Positions 1 through 64,000 of a stretch of 64,000 bases of DNA are shown here, in pieces (the first letter of the stretch is position 1; the number at the start of each line of letters is the position of its first letter). The notes under the pieces were generated by a model. It made no database searches and was not told where the DNA came from. It was given only the letters and a program-made list of their open reading frames with translations. A program made the translations under genes and the position numbers. Source of the DNA: Escherichia phage vB_Ec-M-J. The stretch lies in the sequence record OQ718158.1, one strand, 5' to 3'.

Positions 1-52
1 AGTACCGATAGTGATGTTGATTGGATTGGTGTAAATTTACTGGAGTTGGAGA

Positions 53-337
53 ATGAAAAACAACTTAAAGGAAATACAAGTATTTTATAAATTCTTATAC
101 TTGTCATATGTAAAAGATGAGTACTATGAAAGTGTGTATTATTTTTTATGGCAACATTACCGTACTATAGTAAGAGATTTATATATAGGAAAATCTATCA
201 TATCCAATGGTGAAAAATGTATATGTACTGATGTTGTTAGTTTTAATGGTTCTTTAACACTGTGTTTCAGATGCGATAATAATAGTGGGTCATTTTCATT
301 AAACGTATATCAGTTAGAAGGAATAAATTTTGAATAA
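53..337 (+). CDS. hypothetical protein
   Basis: ORF from track; GGAG upstream of ATG. A frame-1 ORF running off the window start (1..90) overlaps, so the start is uncertain. Confidence 0.4.
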   Translation: MKNNLKEIQVFYKFLYLSYVKDEYYESVYYFLWQHYRTIVRDLYIGKSIISNGEKCICTDVVSFNGSLTLCFRCDNNSGSFSLNVYQLEGINFE

Positions 338-530
338 ATGTCCATATTGCAACAGTACTCAATTAGCTCGTTTCCGTTTAGATTCAGACTGGGCCACTGG
401 TGCTGGTGATTTCTTTCCCATCAATGATGATTCGGAATACACTGAAGAACAGCACAAAGATTTTGATAAATCATGGCGACCTGACATTGAGTGCATTTAT
501 TGCCTTAATTGTGAGCGTATCCATGACTAA
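330..530 (+). CDS. small zinc-ribbon protein (CPYC...CIYCLNC)
   Basis: Two CxxC pairs; TTG start with AAGGA RBS 8 nt upstream. Confidence 0.35.
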   Translation: MNKCPYCNSTQLARFRLDSDWATGAGDFFPINDDSEYTEEQHKDFDKSWRPDIECIYCLNCERIHD

Positions 531-786
531 AGCTGAACTGATCGTGCAAACACTGCGTTTATTGAGGGATTTAGATATCCCACGCATGGATGTGAAACTT
601 GAAGATATCTACATTGAATCTCTTAGTGAAGATTACACCGATACCGTAATGATGCTGAATGACGTGCTTTATCGTATAGATAGCATCAGTCGTCTTGGAA
701 GTACTTTAAAAGTGAATATGGAAAGAGTTGATAAACTTTACGTACATATATATAGTCTACCCATTTCAATATTAAACTATAGATGA
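523..786 (+). CDS. hypothetical protein
   Basis: Internal ATG at 523 of track ORF 400..786 (MTKAEL...), overlapping the previous stop; the longer N-terminus would overlap the upstream gene. Confidence 0.4.
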   Translation: MTKAELIVQTLRLLRDLDIPRMDVKLEDIYIESLSEDYTDTVMMLNDVLYRIDSISRLGSTLKVNMERVDKLYVHIYSLPISILNYR

Positions 787-1073
787 ATATTATATTGATA
801 CAAAAAACATATGCGTTATTGATGAAAGAATATACTAATACTTATGATGAAAAGTGCAGTGCAAATCATAATATGTATAAATTCATCACTCAAGAGTACA
901 GGGATTATATATATGCTGCGTTAGTTGGTAGATATTTCAGTACTAAAAAACGTAAAGAACTCAAAGTTGTAGATATTACTTTTTTCTACAACGGGCATAT
1001 AACAATTCATGGTGTGGAACATAATTCACAAATATATCGTAACTACTCATCCAATGAGGTAACATTTTTATGA
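783..1073 (+). CDS. hypothetical protein
   Basis: Track ORF, + strand, tiles with neighbours. Confidence 0.45.
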   Translation: MNIILIQKTYALLMKEYTNTYDEKCSANHNMYKFITQEYRDYIYAALVGRYFSTKKRKELKVVDITFFYNGHITIHGVEHNSQIYRNYSSNEVTFL

Positions 1074-1243
1074 GAGCATTATTTTTTATCTGGAGTCTTT
1101 TTTCACTAGCAGTACTGACAGTAAGTGGGATTTGTTTCCTTTCGACAATGAATGTCTGGTACATTAATTTACTATTCCCATTCGTAGGTGTAGGTTTAGG
1201 ATTTACTTTACATAGTGTTTGTAAGGATTTTAATGGCAAATAA
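1070..1243 (+). CDS. small hydrophobic membrane protein (57 aa)
   Basis: Own translation: MRALFFIWSLFSLAVLTVSGICFLSTMNVWYINLLFPFVGVGLGFTLHSVCKDFNGK; ATGA overlap with upstream stop; below the 60-aa track cutoff. Confidence 0.3.
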   Translation: MRALFFIWSLFSLAVLTVSGICFLSTMNVWYINLLFPFVGVGLGFTLHSVCKDFNGK

Positions 1244-1517
1244 ATCGAATGAAGTACTTGTTGCTGAAACAATGAAGATGGTTTATGCCATAACAACTAG
1301 TAATGATTTGTCTTACCCAATTAAGTCCAAGTTGAGGGATATAACTCTTCAGGTTATACAGCAGTACTACAAATCTAAACACAAAAGTATTATTAATGTT
1401 TATCGTGACTATGAAAGGATTCGCATTTTGTTCTGGAACAAGAATCGAGTTCGTTCGGAATGTGATATAGAAAACTTTAAATTTGAGAATCTTTATTGTT
1501 ACAAAGCGGGACAATAG
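1236..1517 (+). CDS. hypothetical protein
   Basis: ATG at 1236 (MANKS...) with AAGGA RBS; inside track ORF 1215..1517. Confidence 0.45.
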   Translation, partial: ANKSNEVLVAETMKMVYAITTSNDLSYPIKSKLRDITLQVIQQYYKSKHKSIINVYRDYERIRILFWNKNRVRSECDIENFKFENLYCYKAGQ

Positions 1518-1535
1518 CTCAAGTAGTGATATAAT
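1508..1535 (+). promoter_or_regulatory. sigma70-like promoter, extended -10 (GGGACA-N16-TGaTATAAT)
   Basis: -35-like GGGACA 1508-1513, TG 1527-1528, TATAAT 1530-1535; same architecture recurs at 26524 and 48040. Confidence 0.55.
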
Positions 1536-1575
1536 ATTGGGTATGGAACAATAACTAACACAAGGAGTGTGTAAA

Positions 1576-2499
1576 GTGCCAAGTAAAAAGCCAGATTCTG
1601 AAGTATTCAGACTGGTTGATGAAAAATTGAGTTCAATTGGTTCATCGGTAAAAATGGATAGAACAACATACACAACCATATCAAACAAATCAACTTTTTT
1701 CTGTGATGAATGTGGGTTTAGTAAAAATATCATAGTTAGGAATGTGTACAAAAATGGAATATTTTGTCATTGTCCCACATTTAAAACTTTATATAATAAA
1801 TTGGGTGAAATTAATTCAAAATTAAAATTAGATATTTCCACATTCACAACTACAAAAAACAAATCTAGATTTTATTGTGACGATTGTGCGTTTGAAAGAT
1901 ATATGACGGTGCATGATGTTAAGTCTAGAGGTGCATATTGTAAATGTCATTCATTATATTGTATGCCGTTAGATATCGACGAAGCATATAACACTATTAT
2001 GAATAAAATAAAAGATTACTCAAATACAATACATATGGATAAATCTACATACCGTGGTACACAATATAAGGTTAGATTTTATTGTACAGAGTGTAATTTT
2101 GACAAATATATTAATTATAGTAGAGTTAAATGTGGAACTCTTAACTGCAATTGTATCAGACCAATCCCAGAAGAAAGTAAATTATATATTTTAGGAATAT
2201 ATGAACAAAATATTTTAATAAAATATAAAGTTGGTATTTCTACAAAGATTGATAAATCAAGACTAATTAGTATTAGGTCAAAAACTAATTTTATAGTAGA
2301 GGAATTATATTATTTTACTGGAAATACCGAAGTTATTAAAAGTGTAGAATATAATATTTTAAATCTGCTTAAAAATAGTAGTAAATTGTCAAAGGATTAT
2401 TTTGGCGATGGGTATACTGAAACATTTGATTTACAAGATATAAATCTTGTTATTGATTATGTATGTAAATGTTTACTCGAAAATAAATTAAAAATATGA
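1576..2499 (+). CDS. GIY-YIG-like nuclease domain protein with three tandem Cys-rich zinc-ribbon repeats (possible homing endonuclease)
   Basis: Three repeats of F[FY]C[DT][DE]C.F...C.C; C-terminal GIY...YKVGIS with downstream R/E/N; GTG start at 1576 with AAGGAG RBS. Confidence 0.5.
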   Translation: MPSKKPDSEVFRLVDEKLSSIGSSVKMDRTTYTTISNKSTFFCDECGFSKNIIVRNVYKNGIFCHCPTFKTLYNKLGEINSKLKLDISTFTTTKNKSRFYCDDCAFERYMTVHDVKSRGAYCKCHSLYCMPLDIDEAYNTIMNKIKDYSNTIHMDKSTYRGTQYKVRFYCTECNFDKYINYSRVKCGTLNCNCIRPIPEESKLYILGIYEQNILIKYKVGISTKIDKSRLISIRSKTNFIVEELYYFTGNTEVIKSVEYNILNLLKNSSKLSKDYFGDGYTETFDLQDINLVIDYVCKCLLENKLKI

Positions 2500-62697: not shown

Positions 62698-62700
62698 AAC

Positions 62701-62735
62701 AAAAAAAAAGACTCCTATATGGGGTCTTTTTTTAT
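62701..62735. terminator. rho-independent terminator (A-run/T-run flanked)
   Basis: AAAAAAAAA-GACTCC-TATAT-GGGGTC-TTTTTTT. Confidence 0.75.
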
Positions 62736-62750
62736 ATGTTGTGATATAAT
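62723..62750 (+). promoter_or_regulatory. sigma70-like promoter, extended -10
   Basis: TGTGATATAAT with TATAAT at 62745-62750; -35 region overlaps the terminator. Confidence 0.4.
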
Positions 62751-62777
62751 GATAATATTAATCTAAAGGAACCTGAC

Positions 62778-63056
62778 ATGAATAACAACATAGATGCAGT
62801 GTATGCAATGTATAACAAATATACTTGTGGAGCACCTACATTGGATTATGAATCAACCGAAAAGAACTGGAAATTTATAAAAGAATCAATCGTAGATGTT
62901 TTCGGTAGAGATCGAATAAACGCGTGGGCGAGTATATGTCGTGATGATAATGGAGAAACATTCTACATCACTTATGTTACTATATATTATGGGAGTGAGT
63001 TTATAGTTGGATTACTTGAATGTTTAGTAGGAAAGGATTTAGTAGTACTTATATAA
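62778..63056 (+). CDS. hypothetical protein
   Basis: Track ORF; AAAGGAA RBS. Confidence 0.5.
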   Translation: MNNNIDAVYAMYNKYTCGAPTLDYESTEKNWKFIKESIVDVFGRDRINAWASICRDDNGETFYITYVTIYYGSEFIVGLLECLVGKDLVVLI

Positions 63057-63074
63057 TATACATGGAGAAGTATT

Positions 63075-63701
63075 ATGGAAAGACAAATAATTGCAATTAA
63101 CGGTACTATCGGTAGTGGCAAAGATACTTTTGGTGAAACTTTTATCAATAATGGTTACACAAGAATGTCATTTGCAACTAATCTTAAAGATTCAGTTGCT
63201 GCTATCTTTGGATGGGATCGTGAAATGCTTGAGGGTTCGACTAAGGAAAGTCGTAAACTCCGTGAAGAGCCAGACCAGTACTGGTGTGAGAAGTTGGGGC
63301 GTGATGATGTTTCCCCTCGATGGGTATTACAGAATTACGGTACTAATATTTTGCGTAAGTACTTTCATAATGATATTTGGGTCCATAGTTTAGAGAAGTC
63401 AATGCAATCTGTTGAAGGGAATATTATCATTACTGACTGTCGATTCCCAAATGAACTAAAAATGATTCGTTCATTAAATGGTATTGTGATTGAAGTTCAG
63501 CGTACCCTCCCACACTGGTATGGTTTAGCAGCATCTTTTAATAAAGGTGATATTAGCATGAAACCAATTGAGTTAGAATCAGTTCATGAATCTGAATGGG
63601 CGTGGATTGGTATCAATAATCCTGATATCATTGTACAAAATAATAGCACAATTGAAGCGTTGCACCAACAAGCATTGAGCGTTATTTATGCCAATAAGTG
63701 A
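63075..63701 (+). CDS. deoxynucleoside monophosphate kinase (T4 gene 1-like)
   Basis: P-loop INGTIGSGKDT and ITDCRFPNE motif as recalled from T4 gp1; GGAG RBS. Confidence 0.65.
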   Translation: MERQIIAINGTIGSGKDTFGETFINNGYTRMSFATNLKDSVAAIFGWDREMLEGSTKESRKLREEPDQYWCEKLGRDDVSPRWVLQNYGTNILRKYFHNDIWVHSLEKSMQSVEGNIIITDCRFPNELKMIRSLNGIVIEVQRTLPHWYGLAASFNKGDISMKPIELESVHESEWAWIGINNPDIIVQNNSTIEALHQQALSVIYANK

Positions 63702-63796
63702 AATTAAAACAATTAGGACTTGACATTCAAATCCTTCAATAAATAAGACTATACGAATATAATTCGAATAACCAATTATTTTTGGAGGATTTAATA

Positions 63797-64000
63797 TGGC
63801 AGGAGATCTACTCTCACCTGGCGTTTCCATTTCAGTAACTGATGAAAGTATGAGTACTGCTGCTGCTCCTGGCACAGTACCACTATTTGTAATCGCTACT
63901 GCTGAAGACAAACTTGTTCCTGGTAGCAGTGCAATCGCTGCGGGAACCACTAAAGCAAACGCTGGTAAACTACAGCTACTAACATCACAGAAAAGCTCAC
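63797..64000 (+). CDS. virion structural protein, N-terminal fragment (tail-sheath-like LLSPGV start); runs off the window
   Basis: MAGDLLSPGVSISVTDES... resembles the N-terminus of myovirus tail sheath proteins; TGGAGGA RBS; truncated by the window end. Confidence 0.4.

Follow-up and report, generated by a model that had tools for sequence, protein, structure and literature searches.

Abundance of AGTACT in the window

We analysed a stretch of 64,000 bp (the window) from the genome of Escherichia phage vB_Ec-M-J (OQ718158.1), in which the palindrome AGTACT is the most frequent of all hexamers, with 165 copies by exact count (2.58/kb). The G+C content of the window is 34.8% and nearly all of its genes lie on the + strand. 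A megablast search with window positions 20000-32000 matched Escherichia phage Turkey3 at 98.6% identity and other Asteriusvirus genomes (CMSTMSU, WPEC5, fEgEco12 and 121Q) at 84-98% identity, and judged by its sequence the phage is an Asteriusvirus, belonging to the Rak2-like group of jumbo myoviruses with genomes of about 350-380 kb. The counterpart of the window in Turkey3 lies at about 64.9-128.9 kb and carries genes for RNA ligase, polynucleotide kinase, DNA ligase, ClpP-like proteases and PhoH, along with NrdD/G, large virion proteins, thymidine kinase and endolysin. The features formed by the word in the window are the following, none of them assigned to a strand.

120..63858: dispersed array of 165 AGTACT sites, mean spacing 389 bp, in all reading frames and in non-coding DNA
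1110..63283: 35 copies of the 8-bp palindrome CAGTACTG, 11 of them extending to TCAGTACTGA, with a symmetric flank preference in each frame
4615..4626: perfect 12-bp palindrome TTCAGTACTGAA, the fullest form of the motif (about 0.01 expected per window)
15565..15576: perfect 12-bp palindrome TTCAGTACTGAA
29085..29096: perfect 12-bp palindrome TTCAGTACTGAA
1369..3612: longest AGTACT-free stretch, 2,250 bp between sites, within the maximum for random placement (exponential expectation)
29508..29530: pair of AGTACT sites with starts separated by 17 bp, shortly before an open reading frame (ORF) starting at 29537

Base composition predicts 21.5 copies of AGTACT in the window, and Markov models of order 1, 2 and 3 predict 18, 35 and 60. 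The order-4 expectation of 140 carries no information, since the pentamers that enter it, AGTAC and GTACT, are enriched as well; GTACTG (115) and CAGTAC (110) rank second and fourth among the window hexamers. Shuffling of synonymous codons within each gene gave 56.4±5.6 copies with a maximum of 71 in 300 shuffles, and shuffling of codon order gave 40.0±4.8, against the 165 observed. The over-representation claimed by an earlier sequence-only reading of this stretch is therefore real, and neither a count near the compositional expectation nor an excess that vanished under codon-preserving shuffling, which had been named beforehand as outcomes that would speak against it, was found. The figures of that reading needed some correction, as the excess is 7.7-fold and not about ten-fold, the extrapolation to 200-300 copies was too high, and a 5' C, thought to be present at more than half of the copies, occurs at 77 of 165 (47%), slightly below half. 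Its local hand counts were correct apart from that for 10000-12000, which holds 6 copies and not 7.

The sites in + strand genes are spread over all three frames, with 68 read as AGT-ACT, 26 as xAG-TAC-T and 49 as xxA-GTA-CTx, and the density is 2.85/kb outside called ORFs vs 2.55/kb inside. Seventy of the 131 Ser-Thr dipeptides are encoded as AGTACT, where codon usage predicts about 19. In the window genes, the dipeptides able to hold the word are enriched (Ser-Thr 1.57-fold, Val-Leu 1.37-fold, Gln-Tyr 1.54-fold) and their reversals are not (Thr-Ser 0.99, Leu-Val 0.93, Tyr-Gln 0.80); therefore, selection for the DNA word has shifted protein sequence. AGTACT is under selection as a DNA word and not through protein, because it is independent of frame, equally dense in non-coding DNA and in excess of what the codon shuffles explain. 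These same results rule out a codon or peptide origin of the excess, and the earlier claim of selection on DNA held up on each of them as well as on a flank preference present in every frame.

Flanking bases and the two halves of the palindrome

The flanks of AGTACT are two-fold symmetric, with T at -2 and C at -1 on the 5' side and G at +1 and A at +2 on the 3' side, both per frame and intergenically; a 3' G is present at 82 of the 165 sites. Enrichment rises with motif length, from 7.7-fold for the hexamer to about 54-fold for CAGTACTG (0.64 expected), and for TCAGTACTGA only 0.07 copies are expected. The best form of the word is C-AGTAC-T-G, extending to TTCAGTACTGAA, for which CAGTACAG is named as the contrast sequence beside scrambled oligonucleotides.

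Given GTAC, the 165 copies of AGTACT compare with 140 predicted if AGTAC and GTACT combined independently at their own frequencies, and the 35 copies of CAGTACTG with 38 expected from independent halves. Half-forms are about 4-fold enriched, comprising 33 copies of CAGTAC without a following T and 33 of GTACTG without a preceding A, and NGTACT and GTAC words form a halo around AGTACT that is also enriched about 2-fold.

Placement along the window

The metagene profile of AGTACT is flat at about 2.5/kb, and its only dip is in the 30 bp before start codons, which is the ribosome-binding and start region. The gaps between sites have a coefficient of variation of 0.91, so spacing in the window is near random. 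The ratio of variance to mean of the counts is 0.38 at 2 kb in the window and 0.83-0.96 over 293 kb of Turkey3, the latter nonetheless being below that of almost all of 60 control hexamers. Regular spacing was rejected, as the under-dispersion of the window is absent in several relatives and over the 293 kb of Turkey3, and the Turkey3 ratio indicates that placement is essentially random and uniform.

Avoidance of other palindromes

The genome purges palindromes, and AGTACT stands alone as an extreme exception to this. Of the 64 palindromic hexamers, 26 are absent from the window, including GGTACC, CGTACG, CTGCAG and GGATCC, and GCGC occurs 0 times vs 57 expected, as it is also missing from XbC2 and from every Turkey3 region checked. 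CCGG and GGCC reach only 0.24 of the expected number, and GATC reaches 0.5 of it. AGTACT, enriched 7.7-fold, lacks the depletion of a type II restriction target, and the earlier description of it as the opposite of restriction avoidance is borne out by the palindromes and GCGC missing from the same DNA.

The Escherichia coli Chi octamer GCTGGTGG was found 6 times in the window vs 0.4 expected (about 15-fold), at these positions.

5509, 13132, 17701, 20036 and 62278, + strand: GCTGGTGG
50032, - strand: GCTGGTGG

In Turkey3 there are 34 copies in 346 kb vs 2.3 expected, 11 of them in the first 21 kb, and the copies are mostly co-oriented with genes. As Chi is separately enriched in the same phage, AGTACT is not a stand-in for it.

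Distribution among relatives and conservation of sites

AGTACT is the first-ranked hexamer, at 2.4-3.4/kb, in 121Q, JNE01, A4, Klebsiella phage fENko-Kae01, Cronobacter phage GAP32, Pectobacterium phage CBB, Xanthomonas phage XbC2 and Yersinia phage fHe-Yen9-04, which represent Asteriusvirus, fENko-Kae01, Mimasvirus and Eneladusvirus, that is, every Rak2-like genus sampled. It also ranks first, at 2.1-3.2/kb, in 13 of 13 IMG/VR loci with a relative of the 909-amino-acid virion protein, down to 30% identity. In Turkey3 (PQ471515), 929 copies were counted in the 346 kb read, with 1.9-2.9/kb over most of the genome. The genome-wide occurrence proposed from the window holds both for the rest of the Turkey3 genome and across the sampled Rak2-like genera, and the comparison of these genomes shows the word to predate the split of all of them. 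No enrichment was found in Erwinia phage Desertfox (0.30/kb) or T4 (2 in 20 kb). In Pseudomonas phage PA5oct (MK797984 100000-120000), which is related to the Rak2-like group according to its own paper, there are 0 copies in 20 kb vs 6.7 expected, and the word appears to be avoided there rather than enriched. A 50 kb sample of E. coli K-12 holds 3 copies, the phage being about 40 times denser.

In codon alignments of orthologues, 61% of the window sites are conserved in 121Q vs 39% of control hexamers, and 20% vs 9% in fENko-Kae01. When only codons for identical amino acids are compared, conservation of AGTACT is 64-100% vs 27-56% for controls. At 60% nucleotide identity most of the sites are unshared, with equal density in both genomes. 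Individual sites are under purifying selection and are continually replaced at a constant density of 2-3 per kb.

AGTACT at early promoters

The first approximately 22 kb of Turkey3 hold 6-8 copies of AGTACT per kb, with 11.3/kb in non-coding vs 4.3/kb in coding DNA. This early block of small genes is probably the terminal repeat of about 21 kb reported for fEgEco12, and it has one sigma-70-like promoter per gene (Turkey3 PQ471515 1-22000; XbC2 1-20000). At 26 of the 43 strong + strand early promoters of Turkey3, AGTACT keeps to fixed spots next to the promoter elements: counted from the -10 hexamer, it starts at -27 to -31 (abutting -35), at -7/-8 (abutting -10), or at both; both sites are present at 8 of these promoters, 20-22 bp apart. 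One typical form is AGTACT-TGCAATTAGTTTTY-AGTACT-GTATAAT and a second is AGTACT-ATTGACATAGTTTGAT-AGTACT-GRCATAAT. The same layout recurs in the early region of the distant Mimasvirus XbC2.

The positions expected of repressor operators at sigma-70 promoters were found in the Turkey3 early region and not in the window, where only 1 of 67 promoter-like matches has the fixed AGTACT layout. The pattern of paired sites followed by a -10 hexamer has 0 matches in the window vs 13 in the Turkey3 early region, and the nearest likeness, the pair at 29508..29530, is not followed by a -10 hexamer.

Downstream of many Turkey3 early promoters, the 5' untranslated region contains a GC-rich hairpin of the type GGGGAGAA-nnn-TTCTCCCC that lacks a following T tract; examples are at 14385-14410 and 19100-19125.

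AGTACT-free regions and the AGTACA dialect

To the right of the Turkey3 early block are two regions free of AGTACT (deserts), at 22200-27000 and 29500-38900 (about 22-27 and 30-39 kb). The same two gaps are present in 121Q (KM507819 149445-181564), at positions 6000-10000 and 12800-19500 of that piece, and the identity of the two phages in the deserts, about 80%, is that of the rest of the genome. Tandemly arrayed paralogues of about 70 amino acids make up the first desert, which has no GTAC excess and no motif on either strand. Ten desert proteins were scanned, and a function could be assigned to none of them.

In the second desert of Turkey3 (about 9 kb), AGTACA is the commonest hexamer, with 49 copies vs about 3.4 expected (5.2/kb vs about 0.36/kb). 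It occurs on the coding strand only, TGTACT being found 0 times among the GTAC contexts counted, and it occupies all frames (15, 15 and 12 copies, plus 7 intergenic) while keeping the C(-1) and G(+1) flanks of the palindrome. The core of the equivalent 121Q region holds 38 AGTACA and 0 TGTACT. When the wider regions were aligned, 21 sites were positionally shared between the 50 AGTACA of Turkey3 and the 45 of 121Q, the others being lineage-specific, and none aligned to AGTACT in the other genome. Elsewhere in the genome AGTACA exceeds TGTACT in the sense orientation by only about 1.5-fold, and the direction of transcription is the same in the window and in the second desert. The word is symmetric over most of the genome and strictly oriented only in this desert, which suggests that its reading has, at least in part, a directional or single-strand component.

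Candidate proteins and literature

The methyltransferases of these phages vary by clade, with N4-cytosine enzymes in Mimasvirus and Eneladusvirus and an unrelated C5-cytosine enzyme in Asteriusvirus; a PF05869 Dam-family adenine methyltransferase is listed across Rak2-like genera, the family being present in 959 phage records. The N4-cytosine methyltransferase beside a nucleotidyltransferase was rejected as the cognate enzyme, since matches of at least 80% identity occur in only 18 records and the Asteriusvirus enzyme of the same length is an unrelated C5 methylase. A TnsA-like restriction-fold protein was set aside as a homologue of the T4 head-completion protein gp4. The window itself encodes one further candidate.

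46618-47229, + strand: HNH endonuclease gene, generic HNH domain only

The syntenic position of this gene is kept in Asteriusvirus and fENko-Kae01, and it is unannotated there in GAP32 and CBB; on these grounds and that of its generic domain it was also rejected as the reader of the word. Genes of the MutS/L/H type are not reported in these phages. No description of AGTACT enrichment was found in the openly accessible searchable literature, nor is it mentioned in the genome papers on the phages CBB, PA5oct, RaK2, Sharanji and fEgEco12.

A putative sequence-specific factor and its competitors

From the selection on the word, its ancestry and turnover, its contrast with the host and its promoter positions, we infer a reader and its roles, and we put the probability of this reading at roughly 45%. 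AGTACT would be a selected cis-acting word that is bound by a putative phage-encoded sequence-specific factor, with one role in promoter control and another across the genome. At early promoters, with one or two sites about two helical turns apart, the bound protein would occlude RNA polymerase, and the sites would act as operators switching early transcription. The approximately 1,000 dispersed copies would serve to load or mark the chromosome of the phage, so that its DNA alone undergoes some process, for instance coating, protection or organisation, the palindromic form placing the same word on both strands. The uniform occurrence of AGTACT and a host nearly free of it fit such a mark, which would suit a phage without a nucleus-like compartment and without bulk base modification. 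The filamenting host cell infected by Sharanji, an Asteriusvirus, contains no phage nucleus and is filled with phage DNA (PMC11895373). DNA of a 97%-identical phage was cut normally by ten restriction enzymes and is therefore not bulk-modified. A wider proposal is more tentative, namely that Rak2-like phages may use a lineage-specific self word in place of a nucleus or modified bases, with AGTACT every 400 bp or so separating phage from host DNA, gating early promoters and, as AGTACA, being read directionally.

Several results weigh against a single factor of this kind. No reader protein was found among the methyltransferase, TnsA-like, HNH and desert candidates. In the window AGTACT has no association with gene starts, stops, promoters or terminators, and the promoter role and the genome-wide role may therefore be separate. 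The 26 promoters are not independent observations, because their fixed positions derive partly from duplicated promoter cassettes. The halves of the palindrome are nearly independent and show little cooperativity. As a symmetric dimer on duplex DNA cannot tell AGTACA from TGTACT, the oriented desert is not explicable by a symmetric duplex-binding protein alone, and deserts of this kind were not seen in XbC2. The dimeric reader suggested by the sequence-only reading is accordingly not established, given the near-independent halves and the single orientation of AGTACA over 9 kb, and the packaging role that it also suggested is unlikely with approximately 1,000 dispersed sites.

The orientation and the independent halves, which are awkward for a symmetric factor, would be natural if the word were asymmetric, of the form 5'-(T)C-AGTAC-W-G, and read on one strand in a directional process, with the palindrome (W = T) as the cheapest way of placing it on both strands and W = A where one direction matters. 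Such a word could set where the T4-type primase-helicase starts primers on the lagging-strand template; it could also resemble Chi as a signal to a translocating helicase-nuclease, or act in the transcript or the non-template strand. The second desert argues for it, with AGTACA in all frames, with the same flanks, conserved and yet turning over, and so do the 4-fold enrichment of the half-forms and a spacing of one site per 400 bp or so, which is of the order of the needs of Okazaki fragments in phages with genes for a DnaB-like helicase and a primase; priming would also be favoured, indirectly, by the presence of the word on both strands. Against it, strand asymmetry would be expected over most of the genome, and not over 9 kb alone, if there were a single origin or a fixed direction of the fork. 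Known primases recognise 3-5 nucleotides without requiring enrichment, the first desert is motif-free on both strands, and transcription alone cannot separate the window from the second desert, as its direction is common to both. The fixed promoter positions are also left unexplained, and we regard a purely asymmetric word as unlikely. We are more doubtful again of a phage-encoded enzyme that modifies or nicks AGTACT, either by methylation of the ScaI/Eco255I site as protection or as an epigenetic mark, or by strand-specific nicking, in which case a dimeric nuclease would nick the half-cognate AGTACA on one strand only. A palindrome-avoiding genome with approximately 1,000 ScaI-type sites would have to be shielded from restriction at AGTACT, DNA methyltransferases (Dam-family, N4-cytosine or C5-cytosine) are present in all clades, and RaK2 DNA has been reported to be methylated. 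Protection, however, accounts for tolerance and not for 8- to 54-fold enrichment; the cytosine methyltransferases are clade-specific and mutually unrelated, the Dam family is ubiquitous in phages, lost sites show no excess of C-to-T decay, and the graded flank preference is unlike strict type II recognition.

Two further explanations appear very improbable to us. The hexamer is the core of GTGAGTACTCAC, the binding site of host SlmA (PMC3020112), and phage DNA that activated SlmA could block division, which would agree with hosts that are mostly Enterobacterales and with the filamentation caused by Sharanji, whose DNA fills the cell and which was found to carry no known division inhibitor (PMC11895373). 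The SlmA site requires G1, T2, a purine at position 3 and A-G at positions 4-5 in both halves (PMC3020112), and the phage flanks do not fit it, as C is favoured at position 3 (47%), G is the rarest base there (19/165, 12%) and no G is preferred at position 1. There are 0 full sites in the window, GTR-AGTACT half-sites number 31 vs 65 expected, and the trait is kept in the Xanthomonas-infecting member. Identity with the SlmA site was rejected on the flanks, and the shared core and the filamentation are probably coincidence. Equally little credence can be given to the word having no function, its excess then being a side effect of codon or dipeptide usage or of bias in mutation or repair, whether through repair of the very-short-patch type or through biased gene conversion. 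The halo of NGTACT and GTAC words would agree with such a bias, and biased conversion would likewise yield conservation above that of controls. Most of the excess is lost, however, in codon-preserving shuffles, and all frames and intergenic DNA are occupied. The transition neighbours AGTATT/AATACT are not depleted (observed/expected 1.06), which together with the lack of C-to-T excess at lost sites led us to reject Vsr-type short-patch repair and deamination of 5-methylcytosine. Known skews driven by repair fall far short of an enrichment of 8-fold, or of 54-fold as seen for the 8-mer, and conserved deserts with another dialect in the same genome oppose a genome-wide mutational drive.

Comparison with known systems

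The nearest known phenomenon is HIP1 (GCGATCGC) of cyanobacteria, followed by self-words such as Chi and DNA uptake sequences, from all of which AGTACT is set apart by its viral carrier, its operator positions and its strand-specific dialect. Like AGTACT, HIP1 is a short palindrome enriched many-fold in all frames and non-coding DNA, and is lineage-specific with turnover; AGTACT shows the corresponding genome-wide, frame-independent excess and is a lineage-wide trait with turnover at constant density. HIP1 differs in belonging to cellular genomes and in being GC-rich with a methylated CGATCG core, whereas AGTACT is found in a virus that otherwise purges palindromes, takes fixed positions at early promoters and has a strand-specific dialect. 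Chi (GCTGGTGG), the FtsK-orienting polar sequences (KOPS) and the Neisseria and Haemophilus uptake sequences are likewise kept dense by selection on DNA, with density mattering over position. They mark self DNA, as AGTACT may do, and each is read by a dedicated machine. They are asymmetric and mostly strand-skewed, whereas AGTACT is symmetric over most of the genome and oriented, as AGTACA, in one 9 kb region.

The genome-wide DNA-binding proteins p6 of phage phi29 and TF1 of phage SPO1 also switch off early promoters. They could serve as the working model for AGTACT, combining chromosome-wide binding with repression of early promoters, although they recognise DNA shape or hydroxymethyluracil DNA and not a defined hexamer. 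The SlmA site shares with AGTACT the central hexamer, the palindromic form and the dispersed occurrence, but its required flanks are disfavoured in the phage. ScaI and Eco255I recognise the same hexamer; phages normally avoid restriction sites, as this one does almost all other palindromes, whereas AGTACT is its most abundant hexamer.

These phages replicate unshielded in the cytoplasm, with ordinary bases, without a phage nucleus and with avoidance of nearly every restriction-type palindrome, which raises the question of how they tell apart and manage their own 360 kb chromosome. Approximately 1,000 copies per genome of one word offer a testable handle on phage self-recognition, and AGTACT points to a sequence-specific factor and a likely switch of early transcription, with the AGTACA region as a natural experiment on strand-specific reading. 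Extreme sensitivity to restriction of the ScaI type, or protection from it, is predicted, which is relevant to the host range of therapeutic jumbo phages. AGTACT could also serve as a one-line metagenome diagnostic for the Rak2-like lineage.

An additional gene in the window

One further gene of the window lies on the strand opposite to nearly all others.

34812..36002, - strand: RCC1-repeat protein gene (396 amino acids), between nrdG and the gene of an 898-amino-acid protein

It is not found at the equivalent position of Turkey3 and holds one AGTACT (35436) in 1.2 kb. The gene resembles an array of minus-strand genes annotated as HERC1 or RCC1-like at 337-357 kb of Turkey3.

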